The position numbers and the translations under genes are program-made. Shown here in pieces: positions 13,084-27,087 of a stretch of 64,000 nucleotides of DNA. Numbering within the stretch: the first letter of the stretch is position 1; each line of letters begins with the position of its first letter. A model generated the notes under the pieces. That model did not search any database. It saw nothing but the letters and a program-made list of their open reading frames with translations, and was not told the origin of the DNA. This DNA is from an uncultured Candidatus Poseidoniales archaeon (GTDB lineage: Archaea > Thermoplasmatota > Poseidoniia > Poseidoniales > CAYMED01), in NCBI GenBank assembly GCA_964389655.1, contig CAYMED010000004.1, positions 1 through 64,000 of the forward strand, given 5' to 3'.

Positions 13084-13611
13084 GTGGGGAATATCGTGCT
13101 TGGTGGGGGTTGTTTTTGGTGTTTAGAGGCAATTTTTGAACAAGTAAAGGGGGTACTCAAAGTTACACCTGGCTATGCTGGGGGGGAATGTGAAAAACCC
13201 ACCTACGAAATGGTGTGCTCAAAAAATACTGGTCATGCTGAAGTCGTAAATATTGATTACAATAAATCAATAATTAAAATGGATATGCTTCTCGAGATTT
13301 TTTTTGCTATCCATAATCCTACAACTATTAATCAGCAAGGAAATGATATTGGACCACAATATCGGTCAATTATTTTGACAAATTCTGAAAGTGAAATAGA
13401 ACTTTGCAAGAAGAAAATGAAAGAAATAGAGGAAGAAAATCTATGGGAAAATGAACTGGTTACTGAAGTTTTTTTATTGGAAAAGTTTTGGCCTGCTGAA
13501 GATTATCATTGGGGATATTTTAGGAAAAATCCCAATCAGGGATATTGTGCAGCCGTGGTGAATCCAAAATTATCAAAGTTTAGGAAACAATTCGCTGAAC
13601 TGATTTATTAA
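13084..13611 (+). CDS. msrA: Peptide-methionine (S)-S-oxide reductase
   Basis: 'GGGCFWCLE', 'GHAEVV', 'GNDIGPQYRS', 'AEDYHWGY'. Confidence 0.95.
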   Translation: MGNIVLGGGCFWCLEAIFEQVKGVLKVTPGYAGGECEKPTYEMVCSKNTGHAEVVNIDYNKSIIKMDMLLEIFFAIHNPTTINQQGNDIGPQYRSIILTNSESEIELCKKKMKEIEEENLWENELVTEVFLLEKFWPAEDYHWGYFRKNPNQGYCAAVVNPKLSKFRKQFAELIY

Positions 13612-14939
13612 TCAGAGTCAAAAATTTGATTCAAAATCCAATCTGCATCGAAGACTTTCAGATCATCGTATTCTTGCCCTGTACCAATCAAAACAATAGG
13701 GCGGCCGGTTGCGTGCGCGATTGACAAAGAAGCTCCCCCTTTAGCGTCTGTATCAAGCTTTGAGAGCACACATCCATCAAATGCTAGCATGCGTTGGAAT
13801 TCAACTGCTTGTTCAACTGCATCGTTTCCTGCCAATGCATCGCCAACAAAGAGGACGAGATGAGGAGAAGAAACGCGGTGCACTTTCCGAAGTTCTTCCA
13901 TGAGGTTTGATTTATTTTGCATCCGACCAGCAGTATCAATTAGAACAACATCCATTCGTCGCGCTCGAGCGTGCTCAATTGCATCTCTTGCGATTGCGGC
14001 AGGGTCCCCGCCACGTTGACTTGAGACACAACGAATATCAAGTCGGTCAGCGTGACTTTGCAATTGGTCGATTGCCCCTGCACGAAAAGTATCTCCTGCG
14101 GCCAACACAACTCTCTTCCCTTGAGACTTCAGGGCATGAGCAATTTTGGCGGTAGTTGTTGTTTTCCCAGTACCATTTACACCAACCAACATAATCGAAA
14201 CTGGCGTATCTCCTTCAGCAAGAAGTGAATCTACTGTTGAAAAGAAATCCCAGGAAGATGATGTCAAAAGAGAACGAAGAGAACGAATGACTGATGCTTC
14301 GATTACTCGGCTAAGATCGGCTCCTTTTCGAAGGCGCCTACCAATTAATTCACTTCGAATCAAATCAGTGAGTGCCTCGGTTGCTCGTTGACTCATATCT
14401 GCTTCTAAAAGAATTGTTTCAATTTCCTCCAATAATTCATCAAGGGCTTTTCCGTTTTTGATAATGCGCCCGCCAGATTCGACAATTCCTCCGCCCAAAT
14501 CAACTTCCATCGTTGAGCCAGATTCAGACAAAAATTCTCGTTGTATAGTTGATCCACGAGGACTTGAAGAAACATCAACTAATTTTCTGCCAGTTGTTGA
14601 GCGTTGTACGCGCAAATGGATGGCGGATCCTTCTGGAATTATTTCTGATGATTCGAGAGGTTTCTTGATTTCCTTAGCCAAACGGCGCTTTTCTTTACGA
14701 GTTAATTGGCGGGGGGGAGAAATTTCTTCGTCATCCCAATCATCCCATTCTTCATCTGCCAAAGGAATCGGGCTAGGTTGGTTTATTGGAAGTTTAATCT
14801 CAGTCTTGCGCCGCATTTCCTGACCCAAGCGAACGGCTTCCTTTGCATCTTCACTTCCTTCATCAGTTGATATTTCGGAAACTTCGGCATCAGCAGCAGC
14901 CTCGCGAACTCGGCGGCGGAAGCGGTCAAAAAGGCCCAT
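13608..14939 (-). CDS. ftsY: Signal recognition particle receptor FtsY
   Basis: 'GVNGTGKTTT', 'DTFRAGA', 'DTAGR', 'KLDTDAKGG', 'GTGQEYDDL'. Confidence 0.97.
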   Translation of the reverse strand: MGLFDRFRRRVREAAADAEVSEISTDEGSEDAKEAVRLGQEMRRKTEIKLPINQPSPIPLADEEWDDWDDEEISPPRQLTRKEKRRLAKEIKKPLESSEIIPEGSAIHLRVQRSTTGRKLVDVSSSPRGSTIQREFLSESGSTMEVDLGGGIVESGGRIIKNGKALDELLEEIETILLEADMSQRATEALTDLIRSELIGRRLRKGADLSRVIEASVIRSLRSLLTSSSWDFFSTVDSLLAEGDTPVSIMLVGVNGTGKTTTTAKIAHALKSQGKRVVLAAGDTFRAGAIDQLQSHADRLDIRCVSSQRGGDPAAIARDAIEHARARRMDVVLIDTAGRMQNKSNLMEELRKVHRVSSPHLVLFVGDALAGNDAVEQAVEFQRMLAFDGCVLSKLDTDAKGGASLSIAHATGRPIVLIGTGQEYDDLKVFDADWILNQIFDSD

Positions 14940-14948
14940 TCTTTCACT

Positions 14949-15476
14949 TCAGTCATCAAGAGTTAATCCCCCCCCAAATGATCGCCTCGACGATCTAATT
15001 GGTGGGTTTAAATTGTCCAAATCTAATCCTTTTTCTTTTCCATTCAAATCCACAGATTCATCTGTTTTTTCAATAGTCTTCGTAGTTTCTTCAAATTGAA
15101 GAGCAAACTTTCTGAGAGCGACTTCTGTTCGGTTGATTTCCTCATCGAGTTGATTAAGAAGATCGTCTAAATCTTTTATTCGAAGTTTGAGTAAATCTGC
15201 TGCGCGGGGAAAGGGCATCTGAGCATGAATTCCACTCCCCACATCAAGCAGCGTTGAACTGCTGGAATCCAATTGAACGCGCAGTGTTGCGCCAGCTCCA
15301 ATCGGAATAAGGGCTGCTTCTTCTTTACCTGAAAATGAAAGAAGCGCACGAATAGTATCTGTATGCTCATCGTGTACTGTCTTTACTCGAGACCTTTGGG
15401 ATTGCAATTCGGTCATCCTATCGCGGTTTAATTCGATAAGTTTCGCAAGGTTTTGTAGTTCATCGCTAGAGGACAT
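14949..15476 (-). CDS. pfdA: Prefoldin subunit alpha
   Basis: Coiled coil, 'LIPIGAG...LLDVGSG' hairpins, coiled coil; conserved archaeal order rpl18a-pfdA-ftsY; start ATG 15476. Confidence 0.85.
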   Translation of the reverse strand: MSSSDELQNLAKLIELNRDRMTELQSQRSRVKTVHDEHTDTIRALLSFSGKEEAALIPIGAGATLRVQLDSSSSTLLDVGSGIHAQMPFPRAADLLKLRIKDLDDLLNQLDEEINRTEVALRKFALQFEETTKTIEKTDESVDLNGKEKGLDLDNLNPPIRSSRRSFGGGLTLDD

Positions 15477-15483
15477 TCGGGCT

Positions 15484-15720
15484 TCACCCGGTAGAGTGAG
15501 ATTTGAAATGATGCTGCACTGAAGGATCTGAAGATTCTGTCGGGTCAATTGATTGGGAAGAATCAATAGAAATTTGACGGCGAGAAACGCGGTGCCGGCT
15601 GCCGAGGAGGGATTTTACTTTCTCAAGGGCACCATCTTCATCCGCAGCTACAACATCAATAGAGAAGGGTTGCTGAGCACGCCCGCTTGAGAAGGCCCCA
15701 GCTATTCGCCATGCTTTCAT
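15484..15720 (-). CDS. rpl18a: 50S ribosomal protein L18Ae (LX)
   Basis: 'MKAWRIAG.F...ALEKVKSLLGSRHRVSRRQISI'; synteny with pfdA-ftsY. Confidence 0.9.
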   Translation of the reverse strand: MKAWRIAGAFSSGRAQQPFSIDVVAADEDGALEKVKSLLGSRHRVSRRQISIDSSQSIDPTESSDPSVQHHFKSHSTG

Positions 15721-15780
15721 GTATGCACCCACAAACGAGGCCCCCTTAAACGCGCCGCGGGGAAGACAGGTTCAATCGTA

Positions 15781-18700
15781 ATGCTAGATCTCGAAGGGTT
15801 AGTGAACAATAGAATCGGACTGAGCATGGCCCTTGTTATGCTATTTCATTTACTAGCACCGGTAATAGCTAATGAAAGCAATTTAGCGGAAGAATATTCT
15901 GAAAATTATGGCTTTGGGATTGAAGTAATTGTGGAAGCAAATGATTCAAGCGAGATTCAAGAAAAAGGAATGATACCTTTGCGATATCTTGGAAATGGGG
16001 AATGGAACGCGTGGATGTCATTTGGAGAAGATAAAGGGGTGCGAAAAGCACCGGATGCGGAAATTCGAGATACGGAAGTTATACAAAACGAAAATCTACC
16101 AATACGGGTTGTTCTTGAGCCGAATTTACCACCACATATTGCTAAAGAACGAGTCGAAATAATCTCACAAAGATTGGGTTTTCAGTGGGAGGAAATAGAT
16201 GATATCGAAGGAAGAGAAGGTGAAGATGAGAAAATTTATGCATCGATTCCCCCTGATGGATCTGCAAGAATTGGTGTTATTCAAATTCCAGCAATGGGAG
16301 ATCAAGCAATCGTTTTTGTTCAAGAATTTGCGAGTATTCAAGGCGTATTATGGATAGAACCGGACTTGCCTGCACATTCACGAAATTCAGCTGCGGCAGC
16401 ACAACTTGCAGAAGGGATGGAAAATATTCAACCCTCGGCTGCATGGGAATGGGGATTAAACGGGTCGGGTATTATTTTGGCATCTGCTGACACTGGAATA
16501 GATCGTGATCACGCTTGCTTTAGACAAGGAGTTGAAGATCCAAATGATGCTGGAAACATGACAGGGGTTCCTGGAGAAAATCACCGGAAAATCCTCATTC
16601 TCAATGAAACAATTGACGATTGGGATGATCCAGGGCCAGACCACAGACATGGAACCCACACTGCGGGATCACTTGCTTGTTGGCCGATTGATGAAATGCA
16701 AGCAATGGAGCGAGGTGAAGTTGGAGGATCTTATCCTTCAGCGATAACTGCTGCAAGTCATGCTGCTAAACTTGTAATTCAAGATATTGTACTAGACTCG
16801 TGGGCTCCACCTGAAATTGACAGGATTTTGGTAGAGGGAGGGTTAGGTGGGGCCGTAATTCATTCTGAATCGTGGGGTGATGATACAACAGCATATTCTC
16901 AACGGAGTGCTGATTTGGACTCTTGGCTAAGGGAGCATCCTTGGTCAATTGCAGTTATAGCGCCTGGAAATCAAGGTTCTACTGTTTTAGAACCTGCTAA
17001 TGCAAGAAATATACTCTCTATTGGGGCTGCAAACAGAAATAATGACCTCTATTCGTGGTCAAACATAGGGCCCACTGCCGATGGAGAAATTGGAATTCAT
17101 TTAGTCGCCCCAGGAATGGGCATAAAATCTGCACAAGGGGATGGAGACCACACCTCGTTTAATGGAGGAGAAAGAACCAGTACTGGAACTTCAATGGCTG
17201 CTCCAGTGACTGCTTCAACTCTAGGGCTCTTACAACAAATGGTTGAGCAAGGTTGGTTGATTGATGATGAAATACCAAATCAAAACGTCGAAGTTTCCTC
17301 ATTGCGCCCTATTTGGGCTACTGGTTCAAGCAAAGGGGGGGAATTATTGCTTGGTAAGGGTTTCACGCCCAGTGGGTCTTTGATTAGGGCGTTAGCAACA
17401 GCATCTGCAGATTCACTTGAGGGAGGGAATCATGGTTCAAATCAAATTGGACATATAATTGATGAGCGTCAAGGTTGGGGGAGAATTAATCTCTCAAAAA
17501 TCATAGATTGGGACGAATTAGACGGGAAATTAGTTGATTCTGATTCTTCTTTAATTCCTGCGCCGGGGGTTTGGATTCATGATTCATACCGGATCAAATC
17601 TAATTCAAGTCCAAAAGATCTTTTGGCAAATCGAATGGAACAGGGGTCGGGTTCAAGGCCGTTAGATCGCATAACCACAGCCCCCTTAGACCCATCGGGT
17701 TTAGATGGTCCATTTCTTACTAATGGGAAAGAAGTTTCATGGAGTTTAGTGCCAGATTATGATACACTAAATCGTACTGGCGAATTGATTATTCAATTGG
17801 CCTGGCCAGATAGACCTAGATTTTCATCCGCTCATGATGACCTTGATTTATGTGTGTCATTGGACGACCAATGGCACACATGCGGGAATTTACTGAACAA
17901 TGGAAAATCAATCATGGATTCATCGTTAAATGATTCAAGAGCAAGAGGGGATATTTTATCTTCGATTGAAGGCATCAGAATTCCGGCAGTAGATATACAA
18001 GGAATTAATCGGATCATTGTACGAGTACTTGCAGATGATATTGGAACAGGGAATAAAACTGGAACCCTAGGCATCAATGGAGATAAAATTGGATTTTCAT
18101 TAGTTACAATTGGTGCAAGACCGGCACAAATGAGAGGGGAATGGAATCAATGGCCAAATTGGTCTCGCGGAACTCTGAACCAGATGGGCACATCTTCTTT
18201 TGAAAATTTAGGAGGGGATGTAACAATCAACTGGAGGGAAAATGAGGGAAACGTTGAAATTAATGTAGAAGAAGGAATGGGTGTTAATGCAATCAATGGG
18301 CGAGAAAACAGAACTGGTGCTGTCATACCAATTACACGTATAGTAAATATTTCAGATGTTTCTCGTATTGTTTTAGGAATAGAAGAAATAACTAATGATT
18401 CTCCATGGGAATTCGGAAATAATCCAGTATTAGCAGAGATTGTAAAATGCAGTGCTGGAATTCTTGGATGCACCTCAAACGGAACTGATGTAACTAATCT
18501 TGATGAGAATTCTATGCTTTCGATTTCTTGGCCTGTTGAATTTTCGGGACAAGCAATTATTGATGTATCAGTAATTTGGAATAATGGAAGCAATCTAAAT
18601 GCTCTAATTAGCACTATAATTGCACGGAACTGGGATGGAAAATTATCAACAATAGAAGTCTCAAATATTCTAGATTGGAATTGGTATCCCGATGATGCAT

Positions 18701-19890
18701 TAGGAAATGAACCTACTATAGAAATGCAAAATGGTGGTGCAAAATTCAACTTAGAGGGCGTAAAAGGGAGTGGGAGGTTGGTTATTTCCATGCCACTAGA
18801 TGTGAATTCAAGCACCATCGCGCAATGGACATGGGTGGAAGGTGGTTCTACCCCTCCTGATCCACACCATGATTCTGCTAGGCAGCTAAGGTGCTTCGAA
18901 GTAGAACCACTTATGGAAAATGGACCTACAAAAAATGTTACTGATAGAGATCATGGGTGGTCACACCCTGGTTTACATGATTGTGAAGGCATTCGTGTTA
19001 TCTTTGATATGGTCTGGAAAAACAAATCCGATCTTATCCAGAGTGTCGGAAAACCTTGGAATGATTTGGCTGGAAATTCCGATGGGGCCATTCGAGGACT
19101 TATCATTGGAACTTGGACCCCTGATCTCTCTCAAATGCCGTGGGAAATTTCCTCTAACAATGGACCAGAGGAAGTAACTTGTTCTATGATCGTTGCTGGA
19201 ATGTCAATGTCCTGCCAAGAAAAATTAAATTTAGAAGTTGGTGGAGAAGTTATTATTCTTCATTCATGGGTAGAAGGAAATGAAATTAGGAGCACTGCAT
19301 TACCACTTATTTCTCCTTTGATAAACATTTTAGATTCATCTTCAATTTGGATTTCAATTAATTTAACATCATCATTAATTCAACTTGATGGGCCCGACAT
19401 ACCATTACCTTTGATATTCGAAACAACGCCAAAAAAAGATCAAAAAATAATCGAATTAGATATTTTTTGGCCTGATAGGTGGCCAATTAAAATTGAAAAA
19501 TTAGAATGTGATGATTTACGAATCTTGCTCCCCGATATAGCCGAAATTTATGGAAATGGAACAAATATGGTTATTCGACCAAACAGTTCATGGAAATGGA
19601 CTATATCGAATAATGAAATTTTAGGGGAAAATAATGAAAGCCACATTCGAGCCCCATTAATTTCTGCTGGACGGGTTCTTGCCCCTGACTCGTGTTTAGA
19701 TGAAATTGTTGAAGATCATTCTTCATCAAATAATTCCACGGACGATTCTCGTGATGTCTCGGCAAATCAATTTAGTGAGTTAGGAGAGGGATTACGCGTA
19801 CCAATAATCATTGCTTGGGTGGGCATCTCTTCAATCATGCTTGGAATGATAATTCGAACAAAAATAAACAAAAAAAAAGTAAAAAAATAA
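15781..19890 (+). CDS. Large membrane-anchored S8 (subtilisin-like) serine peptidase
   Basis: Triad 'ADTGID', 'HGTHTAG', 'GTSMAAP'; oxyanion 'APGN'; signal peptide and C-terminal TM plus Lys tail; start possibly GTG 15802. Confidence 0.9.
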   Translation: MLDLEGLVNNRIGLSMALVMLFHLLAPVIANESNLAEEYSENYGFGIEVIVEANDSSEIQEKGMIPLRYLGNGEWNAWMSFGEDKGVRKAPDAEIRDTEVIQNENLPIRVVLEPNLPPHIAKERVEIISQRLGFQWEEIDDIEGREGEDEKIYASIPPDGSARIGVIQIPAMGDQAIVFVQEFASIQGVLWIEPDLPAHSRNSAAAAQLAEGMENIQPSAAWEWGLNGSGIILASADTGIDRDHACFRQGVEDPNDAGNMTGVPGENHRKILILNETIDDWDDPGPDHRHGTHTAGSLACWPIDEMQAMERGEVGGSYPSAITAASHAAKLVIQDIVLDSWAPPEIDRILVEGGLGGAVIHSESWGDDTTAYSQRSADLDSWLREHPWSIAVIAPGNQGSTVLEPANARNILSIGAANRNNDLYSWSNIGPTADGEIGIHLVAPGMGIKSAQGDGDHTSFNGGERTSTGTSMAAPVTASTLGLLQQMVEQGWLIDDEIPNQNVEVSSLRPIWATGSSKGGELLLGKGFTPSGSLIRALATASADSLEGGNHGSNQIGHIIDERQGWGRINLSKIIDWDELDGKLVDSDSSLIPAPGVWIHDSYRIKSNSSPKDLLANRMEQGSGSRPLDRITTAPLDPSGLDGPFLTNGKEVSWSLVPDYDTLNRTGELIIQLAWPDRPRFSSAHDDLDLCVSLDDQWHTCGNLLNNGKSIMDSSLNDSRARGDILSSIEGIRIPAVDIQGINRIIVRVLADDIGTGNKTGTLGINGDKIGFSLVTIGARPAQMRGEWNQWPNWSRGTLNQMGTSSFENLGGDVTINWRENEGNVEINVEEGMGVNAINGRENRTGAVIPITRIVNISDVSRIVLGIEEITNDSPWEFGNNPVLAEIVKCSAGILGCTSNGTDVTNLDENSMLSISWPVEFSGQAIIDVSVIWNNGSNLNALISTIIARNWDGKLSTIEVSNILDWNWYPDDALGNEPTIEMQNGGAKFNLEGVKGSGRLVISMPLDVNSSTIAQWTWVEGGSTPPDPHHDSARQLRCFEVEPLMENGPTKNVTDRDHGWSHPGLHDCEGIRVIFDMVWKNKSDLIQSVGKPWNDLAGNSDGAIRGLIIGTWTPDLSQMPWEISSNNGPEEVTCSMIVAGMSMSCQEKLNLEVGGEVIILHSWVEGNEIRSTALPLISPLINILDSSSIWISINLTSSLIQLDGPDIPLPLIFETTPKKDQKIIELDIFWPDRWPIKIEKLECDDLRILLPDIAEIYGNGTNMVIRPNSSWKWTISNNEILGENNESHIRAPLISAGRVLAPDSCLDEIVEDHSSSNNSTDDSRDVSANQFSELGEGLRVPIIIAWVGISSIMLGMIIRTKINKKKVKK

Positions 19891-20005
19891 GAGACTGAGT
19901 CCCATATTTCTTGCTACAATATATTTTTCACTAAAAAAAAAAGAAGAACTAATTCGCCCATAATATCAAAACCTCGACTTCACTCCCTCTATTGAAGGTG
20001 AAAGA

Positions 20006-21019
20006 ATGACTGAGAGACTCTACCTTGGAATCGATTTAGGCACATACCATTCAGTGATCATGGGAGACAATGATTCAAATGTTCGAATTGAGACTGTTGT
20101 TGGGCGACCAAAAGACCCAATTGCACGAAATTTCTTAGGGCGGGATGTTCTATTTGGAGCAGAGGCATTGAAAAATAAACTTGCTTGTAAAATCTACAGA
20201 CCTCTTCGATCTGGTGTTGCACAAGATGATGAAACAAACCGAGCGGCTGCTCGATCGTTCGTACAGCACTTGATTGAAGAAATTGGACCCGAAGAATATG
20301 ATGAGGTATACGGGGTAATCTGTAGCCCATCAAGCATATCTTTTACAGATAAGAGCAATTTAATGTCTTTCTTAAAGGGACAAGTGAATGCATTGATGGT
20401 TGTTTCAGAACCTTTTGCTGTTGCATTTAGTATGGATGAAATTGGTGGATCAATTATCGTTGATATCGGTTCTGGAAGCACAGATATTGCAAGAATATAT
20501 GGTACCTTCCCAAAAGATGAAGACCAATTAACAATAGAAAATGCAGGAGATAATGTTGATGAATTACTCGCCGATATGATTCGTAAGAAATTTACTGGAG
20601 CACAAGTAACTATTGACATGGTGCGTAAATGGAAAGAAGAAAATTCCTATGTTTTTGAAGATAGCCCCCGTGTTGTGGAAGTCGAATTGGCTGTTGAAGG
20701 AAAAACACAAACTGTTGATATTGGTGATTTAATTATGCAAGCATGTGATTCATTAGCAACACCAATTGTAATTGGGCTAAAAGAAATCATTGCAAATGCA
20801 GATCCTGAATATCAGCCCCTTTTGAGAAATAATATCATCCTTGCAGGAGGAGGTTCACTAATTGAAAATCTCGATAAACGAGTTGCAGCAGAGTTAGCAG
20901 ATATTGGTGACATTACAATTAGTTGTGTTGACGATCCATTCGTACGAGTTGCTGACGGTGCATTGAAGTTGGGTTTAATCATGCCGGATGATCAATTCGT
21001 TGAAGTCCCATCTGATTAA
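20006..21019 (+). CDS. Actin-like ATPase of the MreB/MamK family, MamK-like
   Basis: Phosphate-1 'LGIDLGT', 'VVSEPF', phosphate-2 'VDIGSGSTD', adenosine 'NIILAGGGS'; MamK-like segments 'VVGRPKD', 'GTFPKDEDQLTIENAG', 'PEYQ'; SD-like gaaggtga upstream. Confidence 0.9.
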   Translation: MTERLYLGIDLGTYHSVIMGDNDSNVRIETVVGRPKDPIARNFLGRDVLFGAEALKNKLACKIYRPLRSGVAQDDETNRAAARSFVQHLIEEIGPEEYDEVYGVICSPSSISFTDKSNLMSFLKGQVNALMVVSEPFAVAFSMDEIGGSIIVDIGSGSTDIARIYGTFPKDEDQLTIENAGDNVDELLADMIRKKFTGAQVTIDMVRKWKEENSYVFEDSPRVVEVELAVEGKTQTVDIGDLIMQACDSLATPIVIGLKEIIANADPEYQPLLRNNIILAGGGSLIENLDKRVAAELADIGDITISCVDDPFVRVADGALKLGLIMPDDQFVEVPSD

Positions 21020-21101
21020 TTCTATTGAAACCAACACTCAACGCCCCAATCTTGAGGGGAGGATTGAAAGGCGGTTGAAGGTGCATCCACCTTGATTCGC
21101 T

Positions 21102-22256
21102 ATGAGTGCTGTGGCTCGACCCGATTCTGTCGATGTCTCTACTGCTGGTGAACTAGACAATGCTGAGAAGGCAGCCCTAGCAGGTATGCTTGAAGGATAT
21201 CCAAAAGAACAACTTGTATCTGAAGTTCTTTCTGCTTGGACAGATTTAGGCGGAGCAAATTCAGAATTAGCTGATTTAAAGCAAAGGGTTCGGATGCTTG
21301 AACTTGATCTTGAAGAAAGAGAAGAAGAAGGTGCACCAGACCGTGCTTTGCTTGATCGATCAGAAGCTGAGCGGCGGGACTTAGAAGCGAGAGTTTTGCA
21401 TTTAGAAAGATTACTTGAAGATGCAAGAGCGGAGCGAGAGGCACTCTCAGGCTCTATGACTCAACAACGAATGATTCAACTTGAAACAGATCGAGATCGA
21501 TTGCAGATTCTTTCAGATGAACAACAACAAGTCATTGAAGAAATGGAAAGTCGTTTATCCGAACTAGTTGAAGCATTGCAAAATGCTGCAGATGCTGGCT
21601 TAACATCATTATCTGCTGAACAGGTACGATTTCTTGAAGCTGCATTATCCGATTCAAATACAAGAATAGCAGAACTAGATGAAGAAATGCGATCTACAAA
21701 TTCTGAACGAGACCGTTTGCGAGAGATTACCGAACGATTGAGGACTCTTGTTGAACAAAGGGATGAACGAATTTCTGAACTGGAAACTATTGTAGATGAA
21801 ATTCGTCATGGGCCACGAAGTATTAGTGCAGAACATGACTATTTAGTAGAACAAATTGAAGAATTAAAACGCAGGTTGCTTGAGCGAAATCGAGAATATG
21901 AATCATTAAGGCGGAGAGAGAGAAAACTGCACAAAGATGTATTTGAGCGAGATGAACGATTGGCTCAACTCCAATTAACAATTACTGACTTTGAAGCTGC
22001 TTTACAGGATAGGATGGCTGAACTCAAAGAAATCGAAATTCGTCATGATAAAGCACTGAACGAACTTCAAAGACTCAGAGATGATGCGCGAACTCGTGAT
22101 GTTGTAGATAGAGCATTTATTGACAGCCTTACTGTTCGAAGATCTGCTGAAGAAAAAAATCGATCTGATAATTCTGAAGAAGAAATCACTTCATCTAATG
22201 ATGCGCCAAATTTACCCGGCGGTTATGCTCCGCCAGCCGATTTAGATGATGATTGA
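21102..22256 (+). CDS. Long coiled-coil protein (filament/SMC-rod-like, no ATPase motifs)
   Basis: About 290 aa of E/L/R/Q-rich heptad sequence with short non-helical head and tail; no TM. Confidence 0.75.
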   Translation: MSAVARPDSVDVSTAGELDNAEKAALAGMLEGYPKEQLVSEVLSAWTDLGGANSELADLKQRVRMLELDLEEREEEGAPDRALLDRSEAERRDLEARVLHLERLLEDARAEREALSGSMTQQRMIQLETDRDRLQILSDEQQQVIEEMESRLSELVEALQNAADAGLTSLSAEQVRFLEAALSDSNTRIAELDEEMRSTNSERDRLREITERLRTLVEQRDERISELETIVDEIRHGPRSISAEHDYLVEQIEELKRRLLERNREYESLRRRERKLHKDVFERDERLAQLQLTITDFEAALQDRMAELKEIEIRHDKALNELQRLRDDARTRDVVDRAFIDSLTVRRSAEEKNRSDNSEEEITSSNDAPNLPGGYAPPADLDDD

Positions 22257-23056
22257 ATGGCATCAGAAATCACTTTTACTCGTTTTTGAATTGCTGAAGC
22301 ATTTTCACTTTCTTCAATTACAGTTCCTATGACAATCCAATGTGCTCCTGAATTTGCTGCGGCAAGTGCAGATGTTGAATTAGTAATGCCACCACCTACC
22401 AAAATGGTAAGGCCATCAACATTGGCTGATTTAATCAATTCAGGAGAAACTGGAGTTGGTGATCCACTACCTGCTTCAAGATAGAGAAATTTCATCCCAA
22501 ATCCCTTCGCTGTCAAGGCTAGAGCTCGAATACGCTCAACATCAGAGGGCATAACTAAATCTGCTTCACCAACTTCTCCTGCTTTCATCCCAGGTGCACA
22601 AATTACGTATGCTGTAGGTAATGATTCAATTCCAAATTCTGTGATCAATGGAGCACCAATAATTTGTTCTGAAATAATATATCTAATCGATTTGCTATTC
22701 AAAAGCGACATGAAAAGAACGCCATCCGCTAAGGAGCTTAAAGCATTAGCAGTATTTGGAAATAATAATACAGGTACTCGCCAATAATTCTCATCAGAAG
22801 AAGGATCTTGAGATGCTGCCGAACACATTTCTTCCAAGGAAAGTTGTATCTCTTCAACTGTTCGATCAACTAAACTTACATCGTCAGAAGTTGATCCCCC
22901 AACAAGAATTAATCGGGCGCCACCCATAACTGCTGCAATAGCATTTTTAGCACCTTCATGAGGAAGTTGGCATTCAGGATCAATTAATACAGCAACGCGG
23001 GAAAGAAAAAAATCATCACACATGTAATTAAATATCGAATTGCTATCAAATTTCAT
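22223..23056 (-). CDS. Geranylgeranylglyceryl phosphate synthase (GGGPS/PcrB family)
   Basis: 'LIDP', 'LVGGS', 'ADGVLFMSLLNS', 'YLEAGSG', 'VGGGI', 'IVIGT'. Confidence 0.93.
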   Translation of the reverse strand: MKFDSNSIFNYMCDDFFLSRVAVLIDPECQLPHEGAKNAIAAVMGGARLILVGGSTSDDVSLVDRTVEEIQLSLEEMCSAASQDPSSDENYWRVPVLLFPNTANALSSLADGVLFMSLLNSKSIRYIISEQIIGAPLITEFGIESLPTAYVICAPGMKAGEVGEADLVMPSDVERIRALALTAKGFGMKFLYLEAGSGSPTPVSPELIKSANVDGLTILVGGGITNSTSALAAANSGAHWIVIGTVIEESENASAIQKRVKVISDAIQSSSKSAGGA

Positions 23057-23760
23057 TGTATCTCACCAAAATTAAAATTTTTTGCTAAATTTATTCCATG
23101 ATTAACAGATAATGAAATACTACCTGGAAATTCTCTAGATCGCCATGTTTTCATTTTTTCTAGCCATCCTGAAGTCGGTTCTCTGATTTCTTCCCCAGAT
23201 CTAAACCAAACTTCGCATGTTCCATCTTTTCTATGTATAATAGGAAAAGAAATAGAAATTGGGCATTGAGATTCGAGAACTAGCCCTCCATTCCATTCTA
23301 TAATCATAGGATTTTCAACTAAAGATCGTGCTCTTGCCCCGGGTACTGGAGGTTGAGTTCCTGAAGCATCTATGATTTGATATTGGTCAAGAGAAAGAGG
23401 CAATGGTGTGCCCCTTAATGCTTGATGATGATCTAATTTTTCTAACCAACACTTTGGATATATCCGTCCACCTTTCTGTGTAAATAGTATTGCTAAATTT
23501 TTTTCTACCCATTCTGGTCTCGCACCAGAAATGAAATTCTTTGGGGGATTTTGACTCCAACAAATGTGATCAAGAATTAAATTTTCAGAAAGCCAAGACA
23601 ATCCATTTTTGTTTATACCAATATTTCCTGATCTTCTAATTGGATTGCCAATTTCTTGACGATCATCAATTAATATAACCTCAAATTTCTTTTCAAGTAA
23701 TAAAATTCCAGCTACAAGGCCAGATATGCCACCACCACATATCAAAATCGGTTTATTCAA
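23053..23760 (-). CDS. FAD/NAD(P)-binding protein resembling a shortened geranylgeranyl reductase
   Basis: 'ICGGGISGL' Rossmann motif, 'DRQEIGNP' (GGR-like), 'IIDASG'; lies between ferredoxin and GGGPS. Confidence 0.6.
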   Translation of the reverse strand: MNKPILICGGGISGLVAGILLLEKKFEVILIDDRQEIGNPIRRSGNIGINKNGLSWLSENLILDHICWSQNPPKNFISGARPEWVEKNLAILFTQKGGRIYPKCWLEKLDHHQALRGTPLPLSLDQYQIIDASGTQPPVPGARARSLVENPMIIEWNGGLVLESQCPISISFPIIHRKDGTCEVWFRSGEEIREPTSGWLEKMKTWRSREFPGSISLSVNHGINLAKNFNFGEIQ

Positions 23761-23951
23761 GAATTTATCACCTCATTAATTTCAATTGCTTTAACAGGGC
23801 AACCGGGTAAACATAATTTGCATAAAGTACATTTTTTAATTTCAACTTCTGCTAATTGATTTTTTAAGATTAAAGCATCTACTGGACAGATCATGATGCA
23901 TGCTGCACAACCATAACAAAGATCGGATATGATCTCTAAAATTTCTGTCAT
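23757..23951 (-). CDS. 2x[4Fe-4S] ferredoxin
   Basis: 'CYGCAACIMICP' and 'CTLCKLCLPGCP'. Confidence 0.93.
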   Translation of the reverse strand: MTEILEIISDLCYGCAACIMICPVDALILKNQLAEVEIKKCTLCKLCLPGCPVKAIEINEVINS

Positions 23952-23993
23952 TATTACTACTGAATCGACTCCTATGGATGATTATATCGGACC

Positions 23994-24171
23994 AACCCCT
24001 ACTCTTCCATTGGAAATCAATGAATAATTCTGAATTTCATAATAAAATGATATGATATACTAGAATTCAATGATCATCTATACTGATAGTTCATAATTAT
24101 AGTTACAATTTTTATTTATAATTAATTAAATGATTTTGAGTATTACATTTTCCAATGGAAAAGTAGGGGTT
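23994..24171. other. Probable replication origin (oriC): two inverted ORB elements flanking an AT-rich unwinding element
   Basis: Reverse complement of 23994-24016 (tttccaatggaagagtaggggtt) matches 24149-24171 (tttccaatggaaaagtaggggtt) at 22/23; both fit the ORB pattern TCCA-N2-GGAA..-GGGGT; 132-bp very AT-rich spacer; intergenic between divergent genes. Confidence 0.8.
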
Positions 24172-24221
24172 CCTGATTAATTTGATCCATCGATTCAAGA
24201 GATGTTATTGTTTCCCAATTT

Positions 24222-25523
24222 ATGATGTCAAGTTCACAATACCAAGAGTCCAATATTTCTTATCGATTTTTGGGAGGTGGAGAAGAAATTGGTAATGTTG
24301 GAATTTTATTTGAAAATTCATCTCCTCATCCTCTTTTAATTGATTATGGATTAGCTCCAACTAATCCTCCAAGATATCCAATAACATCTCCAAATGTAAA
24401 AACAGTTATACTAACTCATGTTCATTTGGATCATGTTGGAATGGCCCCTTGGTTGGTTTCTAAATGGAATTCAAATCTTTATTGTACTTCAATCACTGCA
24501 GCATTGTTAGAACGAATGTGGAGAGATACTCTCAAAGTGAGTCAATTAGAAGGATATCCTCTCATTTGGGATATCCGTGATTTAGAAGATGCCTTAGATC
24601 ATCTAAAGATTTTTATTCATGAAGAATGGAATGTTACAGAAAATTGGAAATGGCGATCACATTCAGCAGGACATATTCCTGGTGCATCGATGATTGAAAT
24701 TGATGTGGGGCCTAAAACCATTTTAGTTACTGGAGATTATGATACTAGAGATTCACCAATTACATTTGGAGCTAAATCAATAGAAACAGATGTGCTATTT
24801 ACTGAAGGCACATATGGTGGTCGTGAACATCCATCACGTTTAGTAGAAGAATCTCGCTTTTTAGCGGAGATAGAACGAATAATAGCAAATGGTGGCACAA
24901 TATTAGTTCCCGTTTTCGCGGTTGGTAGAACTCAAGATATTTTGATAATTTTAAATCGACTTTCACCAGAAATAGAAATTCATTTGGATGGAATGGGAAA
25001 ATATGTAACTGAGGTAATGCTTGAACATCCTAGTTTTATCCGTAATCCGCAAGAATTAGAAATGGCATATCGCAGATCTCGAAGAGTTATTTCAAAACAA
25101 GATCGACGAAAAGCAATTGAACGAGCCAATGTAATTGTTTCGACTAGTGGTATGCTAAATGGTGGGCCGGCTCTTTGGTATTTAGATCGTTTAAGAAAAG
25201 ATCCAAGAAATGCCATATTCTTAACAGGTTATCAAGCGCAAGGATCTGGGGGCAGGAACTTAATTGAAAAATCAGAAATAGAAATTTGGAATAAAATAAC
25301 TCCAATTGACCTTTATGTAGACATCTTTGATTTCTCGACACACGCTGGAAATCAAGAAATTATTGATTTTGCATCTGATTCTAAAGCATCTGAAATCATT
25401 ATTTACCATTCAGAACCCCAATTATCTAGACCACAACTTGCATCACAATTACGTGACAATGGCCATGTTGTACATGAACCAATGAATGATTCTGTATATA
25501 GAATAAATCTCGGGCAGGATTGA
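24222..25523 (+). CDS. Metallo-beta-lactamase/beta-CASP ribonuclease (archaeal CPSF-like, no KH domains)
   Basis: 'LGGGEEIG', 'THVHLDHVG', 'AGHIPGA', 'TGD', 'EGTYG', 'FAVGRTQ', 'SGMLNGG', 'FSTHAG'. Confidence 0.9.
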   Translation: MMSSSQYQESNISYRFLGGGEEIGNVGILFENSSPHPLLIDYGLAPTNPPRYPITSPNVKTVILTHVHLDHVGMAPWLVSKWNSNLYCTSITAALLERMWRDTLKVSQLEGYPLIWDIRDLEDALDHLKIFIHEEWNVTENWKWRSHSAGHIPGASMIEIDVGPKTILVTGDYDTRDSPITFGAKSIETDVLFTEGTYGGREHPSRLVEESRFLAEIERIIANGGTILVPVFAVGRTQDILIILNRLSPEIEIHLDGMGKYVTEVMLEHPSFIRNPQELEMAYRRSRRVISKQDRRKAIERANVIVSTSGMLNGGPALWYLDRLRKDPRNAIFLTGYQAQGSGGRNLIEKSEIEIWNKITPIDLYVDIFDFSTHAGNQEIIDFASDSKASEIIIYHSEPQLSRPQLASQLRDNGHVVHEPMNDSVYRINLGQD

Positions 25524-25548
25524 AGCACTCAGGCTGTTTCCCCCATCT

Positions 25549-25857
25549 ATGGCTGGTCGTCCTCCTAGCACTGGGGCCCCCCCCCCTAAGGCTCCTCGAA
25601 AACGAAAAAAGCGTAAAGTCAAATTAACTTTGAAAAGCCGTTCCCTGAAAGAAGATACTTATGTTGACCGAAGAGGTTGGACAACAAATGCAACGAGCCG
25701 CAAGTTAACTGATGATGAAACCCCTAAATCTCAACCAGATTTTATCAAACATCAGTGTACTGGTTGTGGATATGTCCTCAAAGTTCCAAGACCAAAACGA
25801 GATCGCTATGTAGTTGAATGCCCTTCCTGCGAAACAAAAGACGAATTTGGAATATGA
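25549..25857 (+). CDS. Small basic protein with a C-terminal zinc ribbon
   Basis: K/R-rich N-terminus; 'CTGC' and 'CPSC'. Confidence 0.65.
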   Translation: MAGRPPSTGAPPPKAPRKRKKRKVKLTLKSRSLKEDTYVDRRGWTTNATSRKLTDDETPKSQPDFIKHQCTGCGYVLKVPRPKRDRYVVECPSCETKDEFGI

Positions 25858-25878
25858 TGTAATCAGGCCGGTCCTCAA

Positions 25879-27087
25879 ATGGAACAGTGGGTTAATTTGG
25901 CACAAGCCCAAGAAATCTGTCAACAACTTGAGGTATCACCTAAATCAGTAAATCAAGTATCACTGGACGATGCTTATGGTCGTCGCTTAGCATCCCAAAT
26001 TGTGGCAGTTAGGGACGATCCTTCTTTTGATCAAAGTGCAATGGATGGATTTGCAGTAAAGATTTCTGACACAATTAATGCTACTAAAAAAAATCCAATA
26101 CGACTTTCTCTTGTCGGTCAAATTGAAGCGGGTCTTCCAGCATCATTTCCTGAATTATTGGACGGCACAGCAATTAGTATCATGACCGGGGGAGCCGTTC
26201 CTCCAAATGCCGATGGGATTGTAATTGTAGAAGATACAAAAAAAATTGATTCTAATAGCATAGAAATTATGGCACCAGCTCAAAAACACATTAGGCGCAA
26301 AGGTGAAAATTTTTCTTCAGGTTCTTTTCTTGTTACTGCAGGCACTCGCTTATTGCCAGAACATATTGGCTTAATTGCTACTACTGGTTCCACCATGATA
26401 GAATGTTATCAGCAATTAACAATCGCAGTAATTCCTACAGGAAGTGAATTAGTTGAACCCGGATCATCTCCAGAATTTGGTCAAATATATGAGTCAAACG
26501 GCCATGGGATTTCATCTGAAATAATTCATGCAGGACATATTCCCCTTCGATATTCCCCAGTTAAGGATGACATTAATTTGCTACGAAAAGTTTTCGACGA
26601 AGCCTCTTCAAAAGCCGACGTCATCTTGACATCCGGGGGCGTTTCAATGGGCGCTTTTGATTTTGTTAGATCTTTGATTATTGAAGAAGGAGATGCCTTA
26701 TTTTGGAGAATTCGTATGAGGCCGGGCTCGCCTCCAATTGTCGGATGCTGGAATGGAACACCGATTTTTGGATTACCTGGAAATCCAGTATCATGTCATG
26801 TTTTATTTCGAGTTTTAGTCGAACCTTGGCTTTGTTATCAATTTGGATCCTCCTCTTCTGTCCAATTTATCCAAGCCCGTCTTGGGTCTCCAATTCGATC
26901 TCGGCATGATCGTCTTTGTCTTGATCGTGTTATACTAGAAAGAAATGGAGCAGAGATGGTTGCTTATCCAATTCCGCAACAATCATCAAGCCATCTTCGG
27001 GGTTTAGCAATTGCAAATGCTTTGGCATGGATAGATCCCGAATCTTCATCAGATAAGGGAGATATCATTCCTTGTTTTCTTCTATAA
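25879..27087 (+). CDS. moeA: Molybdopterin molybdotransferase MoeA
   Basis: 'SAMDGFA', 'IMTGG', 'TGSEL', 'TSGGVSMG', 'GLPGNPVS'. Confidence 0.95.

Follow-up and report, generated by a model that had tools for sequence, protein, structure and literature searches.

Where does replication begin on the chromosomes of the Poseidoniales (Marine Group II, MG-II), and can an archaeal origin be recognized there when no initiator gene stands beside it? The question is raised by an inverted repeat at positions 23994 to 24171 of a 64,000-nucleotide stretch (the window) that forms part of contig CAYMED010000004.1 (C4) of an uncultured Candidatus Poseidoniales archaeon. The source is a metagenome-assembled genome (MAG; G000) of 104 contigs, 93% complete and 5.7% contaminated. 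Marine Group II rank among the most abundant archaea of the plankton, and to our knowledge none has been cultured. A preliminary description, made from the letters of the window, had proposed a chromosomal origin here without an adjacent orc1/cdc6 gene. The analysis reported below makes it very probable that 23994-24171 is the chromosomal replication origin of this archaeon, of the oriC1 type (the class defined by Orc1-1 and the origin recognition box, ORB) and in the minimal arrangement ORB(-)/DUE/ORB(+), where DUE is the duplex unwinding element.

Origin recognition boxes and spacer

The repeat had been described as a 23-bp inverted repeat with 22/23 identity and arms 132 bp apart, and both a repeat finder and direct reading bear this out. 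The 23-nt arms (AACCCCTACTCTTCCATTGGAAA and TTTCCAATGGAAAAGTAGGGGTT; coordinates in Table 1) are 96% complementary. Other inverted repeats of the region returned by the repeat finder are mostly 70 to 87% complementary or just 10 to 14 nt long, and the 23994/24149 pair is clearly exceptional among them. When the 22-mer was sought with ≤3 mismatches, only two sites were found in the 64 kb, both of them the arms themselves, and none of 100 dinucleotide-preserving shuffles held any match. For comparison, the boxes were set against two published consensus sequences, pan-archaeal and Methanomassiliicoccales, and against an order-wide logo. Each arm constitutes a full archaeal ORB, composed of the dyad TCCAnTGGAAA, a short gap, and GGGGT, and the left box (ORB-L) fits the order-wide consensus yTCCArTGGAAAyaaRGGGGT as well as the pan-archaeal consensus CTTCCAGTGGAAACGAAAGGGGT (Pelve et al. 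2013, as quoted elsewhere). Weaker symmetry was said to continue outward from the arms. The short words ATCCAT and CGATTC are indeed found on either side. The ungapped symmetry of the flanks in the window, at 0.40, does not rise above its null level of 0.381, however, and outward flank symmetry is not conserved across the order (0.389). An Rfam scan of the region gave no match at an E value of ≤1.

The 132 bp between the boxes were described as extremely AT-rich, and they are. By nearest-neighbour stability, 24017-24148 is the least stable window of this length on the 98.6-kb contig C4 (z = 5.0), and the fraction of 132-bp windows in the 2.1-Mb MAG that are as unstable is 3.8e-6.

The orientation of the boxes had been a source of doubt, as their G-strings point away from the spacer. 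That doubt can now be dismissed: ORB(-)/DUE/ORB(+) with the G-string distal is the canonical polarity, and it holds throughout the Thermoplasmatota, since nearly all paired ORBs (within ~5 kb) in a scan of 91 genomes have the minus-strand box on the left and the plus-strand box on the right. Protein-DNA studies describe the corresponding contacts. The winged-helix domain of the initiator protects the conserved box core, with the AAA+ contact 3' of the core (PMC3089459), and at opposed boxes the winged-helix and lid domains face one another over the DUE (PMC6742236). ORB(-)/DUE/ORB(+) is named the minimal functional archaeal oriC in a 2026 preprint (bioRxiv 10.64898/2026.08.15.744077).

Table 1. 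Coordinates of the predicted origin and its neighbours, of box pairs and initiator genes in relatives, and of a distant arrangement in other families (locations without a genome name refer to the window)
Feature	Location	Strand	Remarks
ORB-L, left origin recognition box	23994..24016	-	Minus-strand reading TTCCAATGGAAGAGTAGGGGTT; dyad adjoins spacer, G-string outward
AT-rich spacer, presumed DUE	24017..24148	.	17.4% G+C; lowest duplex stability
ORB-R, right origin recognition box	24149..24171	+	TTTCCAATGGAAAAGTAGGGGTT; G-string outward
Leftward operon: ferredoxin, Rossmann/GGR-like protein, GGGP synthase	22223..23951	-	Pfam; runs away from the predicted origin
Ferredoxin, 64 aa, 2x[4Fe-4S]	23757-23951	-	Pfam
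Short Rossmann/GGR-like protein, 235 aa	23053-23760	-	Pfam
PcrB-family GGGP synthase	22223-23056	-	Pfam
Metallo-beta-lactamase/beta-CASP nuclease, 433 aa	24222..25523	+	Pfam; runs away from the predicted origin
TATA-like word ATATAA	23982..23987	-	~31-36 nt upstream of ferredoxin start codon; outside the ORB pair; read from sequence
TATA-like word ATTAATTT	24176..24183	+	~40 nt upstream of beta-CASP start codon; outside the ORB pair; read from sequence
G003, pair and initiator genes	Pair 203.7-203.9 kb; orc1-1 1,829.6 kb; orc1-2 701 kb		Distances 438 and 497 kb
G026, pair and initiator genes	Pair 186.2-186.4 kb; orc1-1 523 kb; orc1-2 622 kb		Distances 337 and 436 kb
G022, pair and initiator genes	Pair 682.7 kb; orc1-1 372 kb; orc1-2 272 kb		Distances 310 and 410 kb
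G043, pair and initiator genes	Pair 7.1 kb; orc1-1 455 kb; orc1-2 on other contig		Distance 448 kb
Arrangement of families f5/f29	L262/L267 = G104 C23:120492 and 124968		Also G094, G119, G098, G081, G113

Genome-scale strand bias

Strand bias was computed on all of the Thalassarchaeaceae-like relative G026 (1,598,520 bp, one contig) and on the first 1.2 of the 2.06 Mb of G003, the MG-II chromosome CM001443.1, with simple longest-ORF (open reading frame) gene calls that were 93% coding. In G026 the cumulative coding-strand bias reaches its lowest value of the whole genome at 185,952 and its highest at 941,667; the ORB pair of this genome lies at 186,219-186,390. For G003, evaluated over 1 to 1.2 Mb, the minimum falls at 203,746, exactly where the pair (203,746-203,929) begins, and the maximum at ~997 kb. 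The pair-bearing junction at which the minimum falls is 1 of 232 divergent junctions in G026 and 1 of 169 in G003, so that the chance of each coincidence is ~0.5%. A symmetric two-replichore scan of G026 agrees with this position, the share of coding DNA on the leading strand reaching its peak, 60.5%, with the origin placed at 180 kb. Differences between leading- and lagging-coded genes in orientation-corrected G-C and in third-position A-T peak at 200-220 kb. The G026 curve forms one V without a second reversal, and a strand-bias minimum at the pair is the pattern expected of a single bidirectional origin.

Conservation across the Poseidoniales

The loci of relatives were located through the beta-CASP gene as an anchor; an alignment query succeeded, and a single-protein query retrieved none. 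Among the first 29 loci from relatives, 27 have the inverted ORB pair immediately 5' of the beta-CASP orthologue (49-54% identical at the protein level), again with the left box on the minus strand and the right box on the plus strand. The full set comprised 111 loci (the window, a second copy on contig C24 of the same MAG, and 109 from relatives), with an arm accepted at ≤3 mismatches to the pattern. Both arms are present in 105 of the 111. Of the six exceptions, three have no upstream sequence, one breaks off with its contig after a single arm, and two retain one clear arm. Whether the repeat recurs between the same genes in relatives had been set as a check in the preliminary description, and it does so: 105 of the 108 loci that have upstream DNA carry it between the ferredoxin-GGGPS operon and the beta-CASP gene.

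Positions of the order-wide box consensus are near-invariant, and conservation extends to bases that were not part of the search pattern, namely, the T after GGGG (203/210) and the pyrimidine before TCCA (201/210). The spacer, in contrast, varies freely in sequence, and no motif conserved in relatives, such as an analogue of ucm or mini-ORBs, was seen in it beyond T-tracts. Its length is 126 to 156 bp, mostly 142 to 147 bp (136 bp for the window in this count), and its G+C fraction across loci is 0.356, compared to 0.465 in the flanks. Conservation of the boxes around a freely varying spacer, at ~50% protein identity, indicates selection on the boxes and on their spacing.

The same evidence bears on the proposal that the repeat is a remnant of a mobile element with no chromosomal role, i.e., the terminal inverted repeats of a miniature inverted-repeat transposable element (MITE) or insertion sequence, or a plasmid or viral origin integrated into the chromosome. 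Terminal inverted repeats of 23 nt with a short AT-rich core are superficially MITE-like. Nevertheless, the pair is single-copy in every genome scanned and occupies a fixed syntenic site between core genes across an order in which the proteins are ~50% identical; its arms are the pan-archaeal ORB rather than an element-specific repeat, its neighbours are housekeeping genes, and no integrase or plasmid genes are found nearby. A mobile origin of the repeat is therefore extremely improbable.

An ORB scan had also been proposed as a check on the origin. In the genomes scanned, the ferredoxin/beta-CASP cassette holds the only close (-)/(+) ORB pair, apart from one degenerate match in the MAG. The closed genome G026 and the 1.2 Mb of G003 each hold a single such pair, and the MAG has one on C4, one on its syntenic twin C24, and the degenerate match on C12. 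The C12 match, at 45% G+C, lies inside a 1564-aa ORF and was taken as chance. No ORB was found near the beta-CASP orthologues of five other Thermoplasmatota genomes, and the location of the predicted origin between the ferredoxin and beta-CASP genes is specific to the Poseidoniales among the genomes sampled.

Initiator genes and solitary boxes

The preliminary description had stated that no initiator gene occurs beside the repeat or elsewhere in the 64 kb. A profile search agrees, and the separation extends across the order. On C4 no Orc1/Cdc6 gene was found within 24 kb to the left of the pair or 74 kb to the right. A weak match to TIGR02928 in the window (20 bits, 14112-14216) is the P-loop of FtsY and was rejected as an initiator. 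Each Poseidoniales genome checked has two Orc1/Cdc6 genes, and Orc1-1 is present in all 91 Thermoplasmatota genomes sampled. In the four relatives with long contigs, the pair lies 310 to 500 kb from orc1/cdc6 (Table 1). Conversely, neither an ORB nor AT-rich intergenic DNA was found beside orc1-1 or orc1-2 of the MAG, where the intergenic regions are 98 to 149 bp long and 43 to 64% G+C. The Orc1-1 orthologue in the MAG bin (C1:89044-90282; TIGR02928, 425 bits) matches Aeropyrum pernix ORC1, solved on an ORB (2v1u, 3e-90), and Saccharolobus (Sulfolobus) solfataricus Orc1-1 (2qby_A, 1e-88), and the SRGRYG wing motif falls within its alignment to known Orc1 structures.

Boxes also occur singly. 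A perfect solitary ORB, TCCAGTGGAAATGAAGGGG, is found at C1:83851-83869, inside an 861-aa ORF in which it codes for VSSGNEGV. An intragenic ORB lies 4.2 to 5.4 kb from orc1-1 in every Poseidoniales genome checked (in relatives, G003:1824165, G026:519055, G043 C1:461664, and G013 C1:326987), and none of these has a partner box, an AT-rich spacer, or a switch in strand bias. A further solitary ORB, at G003:305934 (L211:5934-5952), is situated ~50 bp upstream of the MCM gene (L211:5985-8159) and ~102 kb from the predicted origin; G026 has a box resembling it at 307,180. The mcm-promoter ORB is probably an Orc1 operator for mcm, and in our reading the solitary boxes are more likely regulatory Orc1 sites than origins.

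These boxes could nevertheless indicate that the pair is one of several origins, or dormant, with the main or a second origin near orc1-1 (where ORBs lie ~5 kb away) or at a GCGTTAA array by an Orc-like gene. Multi-origin chromosomes are common among archaea, the ORB near orc1-1 is present in all Poseidoniales checked, and a GCGTTAA cluster is located near orc1-2 in G026, at 614.4 kb. However, the plus-strand coding fraction of G026 is 0.61 to the left and 0.66 to the right of the orc1-linked ORB, i.e., there is no switch, and the single V of the curve lacks the reversal between 186 and 519 kb that two active origins require. The orc1-linked ORB, inside its 861-aa ORF, has neither partner nor AT-rich spacer, and close to the GCGTTAA cluster the strand curve has a local maximum, the mark of a convergent point. 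We regard a multiple or dormant origin as quite improbable, with the proviso that strand bias records long-term usage and has little power against a weak or conditional second origin.

Flanking genes and candidate promoters

The ferredoxin, Rossmann/GGR-like, and GGGP synthase genes adjoin the pair not only in the window but also on C24 and in G003, and a T-rich block ~19 to 22 nt beyond the ferredoxin-side arm is kept across relatives. The TATA-like words at 23982 and 24176 (Table 1) are candidate promoters of the ferredoxin operon and the beta-CASP gene, respectively. As both would lie outside the pair, the spacer needs no promoter role.

The nearness of these words to the boxes gives rise to another explanation, in which the boxes are operators for the divergent ferredoxin-GGGPS and beta-CASP promoters, bound by Orc1-1 or by a paralogue such as Orc1-2, and replication starts elsewhere. 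The G-strings end 4 to 6 nt from the TATA-like words, so that a bound initiator could affect access of TFB/TBP, and solitary conserved ORBs do occur in promoter-like positions, as upstream of mcm in G003. Regulation would not, however, need a strict inverted pair, nor an AT-rich spacer of conserved length. Both candidate promoters lie outside the pair, which leaves the spacer without a promoter role, and the genome-wide coding-strand switch coincides exactly with the pair and with none of the solitary ORBs. The pair of the window also differs from a solitary regulatory ORB in having two inverted boxes and a DUE, compared to the single box of the mcm promoter. A purely regulatory role is consequently unlikely. 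Origin and operator roles are compatible, and the boxes may serve both.

Two features of the neighbouring genes deserve mention in their own right. The 235-aa product of 23053-23760 matches only the N-terminal Rossmann part of FAD/NAD-binding families (HI0933_like and NAD_binding_8), and its counterparts are similarly short (236 aa on C24 and 240 aa in G003); typical geranylgeranyl reductases, at 390 to 450 aa, are far longer. Farther to the left, at 20006-22256, the window encodes a 337-aa protein of actin/MreB fold, which Pfam matches to MreB_Mbl at 76 bits, to Actin at 50 bits, and to Salactin at 42 bits; after it comes a 384-aa protein without a Pfam match. Both genes are 2 to 4 kb from the predicted origin, and the same two genes are found at the same place on C24, with 58 to 66% identity in the main tblastx segments. 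If they form a cytoskeletal or segregation pair close to the predicted origin, the two genes would be of separate interest.

Composition of the source genome

The MAG contains a second, syntenic copy of the region, in which C24:1-14500 corresponds to 13600-26850 of the window, with protein identities of ~50 to 65%. The synteny comprises MoeA, a small ORF, the beta-CASP nuclease, the ORB pair, the ferredoxin operon, a coiled-coil protein, the actin-like protein, an S8 peptidase, prefoldin, and FtsY. The beta-CASP protein of C24 is 97% identical to that of the MAG UBA226, whereas that of C4 is ≤53% identical to anything found, and the UvrA of C4 is only 67% identical to that of a genome of the same genus (G001). 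Two divergent copies of the region, together with these beta-CASP and UvrA identities, indicate that the bin mixes two Poseidoniales lineages. To judge from the identities, C4 belongs to a deep-branching lineage, and it may lie apart from the bulk of the bin. In a mixed bin, the orc1 genes on C1 and C8 may come from an organism other than that of C4. The order-wide results are untouched by this mixture.

Evaluation of the origin assignment

Several observations weigh against an origin at the pair. First, the solitary ORBs at the mcm promoter and within the ORF near orc1-1 demonstrate that a lone ORB need not be an origin. Second, the spacer is just moderately AT-rich in relatives of higher G+C content (~0.40 compared to 0.52). 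Third, plain GC skew is weak and equivocal: the raw cumulative maximum of G026, at 192.6 kb, shifts after detrending, and plain GC/AT skew and the Z-curve of this genome have weak extremes that are unstable to detrending and confounded by giant genes; they were not counted as support. Fourth, neither the window nor C4 has a clean switch of orientation or skew at 24 kb. The sign of the skew flips near 36 kb, and skew in the window follows gene orientation, so that the scale of a window or contig is uninformative. Finally, the strand-bias evidence comes from the genomes of relatives, in one of them (G003) from only 1.2 of 2.06 Mb, rather than from the fragmented MAG, and G026 and G003 are themselves related, which means that their two coincidences are not fully independent.

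On the other side, nearly all the features by which an oriC1-type origin is recognized are present, namely, boxes of ORB consensus in inverted polarity, an AT-rich DUE, an Orc1-1 gene in the bin (though C4 may belong to another population), syntenic conservation, and, in relatives, the strand-bias switch. Adjacency to orc1/cdc6, which is typical of such origins and not required, is absent. Those refuting conditions of the preliminary description that could be put to the sequence data all spoke for an origin.

If 23994-24171 is an origin, initiation could proceed as follows. One Orc1-1 monomer, encoded elsewhere on the chromosome, would bind each box, with its winged helix on the spacer-proximal TCCA-TGGA dyad and the initiator-specific motif of its AAA+ domain on the distal GGGG. 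The two opposed initiators would recruit MCM hexamers onto the 132-bp spacer of 17% G+C, the spacer would melt, and forks would depart both ways. The ferredoxin-GGGPS operon and the beta-CASP gene, transcribed outward, would then be co-directional with the forks.

A broader proposal can be put forward tentatively and is, in our judgment, possible rather than probable: that initiator gene and origin are permanently separated in the Poseidoniales, that one two-box origin fires the whole chromosome, and that Orc1-1 reads the solitary ORBs (at mcm and near orc1-1) as operators. If this is true, Orc1-1 runs a DnaA-like regulon that couples initiation to the supply of helicase and initiator. Current origin finders would then probably miss or misplace the Poseidoniales origin, because they rely on an adjacent initiator gene or, if none is adjacent, on at least three boxes.

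A full-text literature search, with most subscription journals outside its range, turned up no publication locating the replication origin in Marine Group II or the Poseidoniales, and a prior database annotation is possible. An order-wide origin marker would allow growth rates to be derived from metagenomes through the origin-to-terminus coverage ratio on closed MAGs, and it would give Poseidoniales genomes a natural start coordinate.

Comparison with known origins

The predicted origin shares its box class (TCCA-TGGAAA, ~4 nt, GGGGT) with the oriC1-type origins, i.e., ORB2-DUE-ORB3 of Sulfolobus/Saccharolobus oriC1, Pyrococcus oriC, and Aeropyrum ori1. Like them, it has inverted boxes around an AT-rich DUE, the order ORB(-)/DUE/ORB(+), and an Orc1-1 orthologue in the genome bin. 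Unlike them, the Poseidoniales pair consists of two boxes only, and neither a third ORB nor mini-ORBs were detected; its spacer showed no conserved motif of the kind represented by ucm in the Sulfolobus origin; and the initiator gene, typically adjacent, is 310 to 500 kb away.

Closer relatives offer a similar comparison. In the Methanomassiliicoccales, a neighbouring order of the Thermoplasmatota, the ORB consensus is GTTCCAGTGGAAATGG-AGGGGT (Borrel et al. 2014, PMC4153887), and the predicted origins have, as in the Poseidoniales, a near-identical consensus, an equal 4-nt gap before the G-string, and the minus-strand box on the left with the plus-strand box on the right. Both groups also have two orc1/cdc6 paralogues, along with a small number of solitary ORBs at other sites. 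Our scan of G099, with ORBs at 79, 139, 1979, and 2047 and orc1 at 739-1833, reproduces the table of Borrel et al. for 'Ca. M. alvus'. In contrast to the Poseidoniales, the Methanomassiliicoccales ORBs bracket or abut orc1/cdc6.1; the Poseidoniales boxes are ~160 bp apart with only the DUE between them, and the gene neighbourhoods are unrelated.

Most other Thermoplasmatota families likewise have boxes on both sides of orc1-1 or directly beside it (e.g., G099, G124, G087, G062, G069, G063, G070, G077, G068, G123, and G129). Families f5, f29, f17, and f26 have the same box type and polarity, with the pair on another contig than orc1-1 or ~23 kb away. In G109 (L264:1501-1804 = C1:24798-25101), for example, ORB(-)/DUE/ORB(+) encloses a 266-bp, extremely AT-rich spacer, has extended G/C strings outside the boxes, and lies ~23 kb from the nearest orc1 paralogue. 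In f5 and f29 (Table 1), two identical ORBs ~4.5 kb apart stand beside genes for a radical-SAM protein, an HflX-type GTPase, and the PolD small subunit, and orc1-1 is on a different contig. The f5 arrangement thereby differs from that of the Poseidoniales both in the distance between the boxes and in its neighbours; the PolD small-subunit/HflX-type GTPase setting is a classic euryarchaeal origin neighbourhood. The arrangement of f5/f29 looks like a second case in the phylum in which the origin has become unlinked from the initiator independently. The unlinked pairs of these other families suggest that origin and initiator gene have parted more than once in the Thermoplasmatota.

Beyond the phylum, the oriC of Hyperthermus butylicus, compared here by its description in the same preprint (bioRxiv 10.64898/2026.08.15.744077), is likewise ORB(-)/DUE/ORB(+) without an adjacent initiator gene. 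It belongs to another phylum, and in the Poseidoniales the unlinking is order-wide and has the support of strand bias. The Poseidoniales locus is therefore a well-supported, order-wide example of an archaeal origin that lies apart from its initiator gene, and it bears on prediction tools based on adjacency or on at least three boxes. What is new here is the location of the predicted origin and its order-wide separation from the initiator gene; the element itself is a canonical minimal origin of the oriC1 type.

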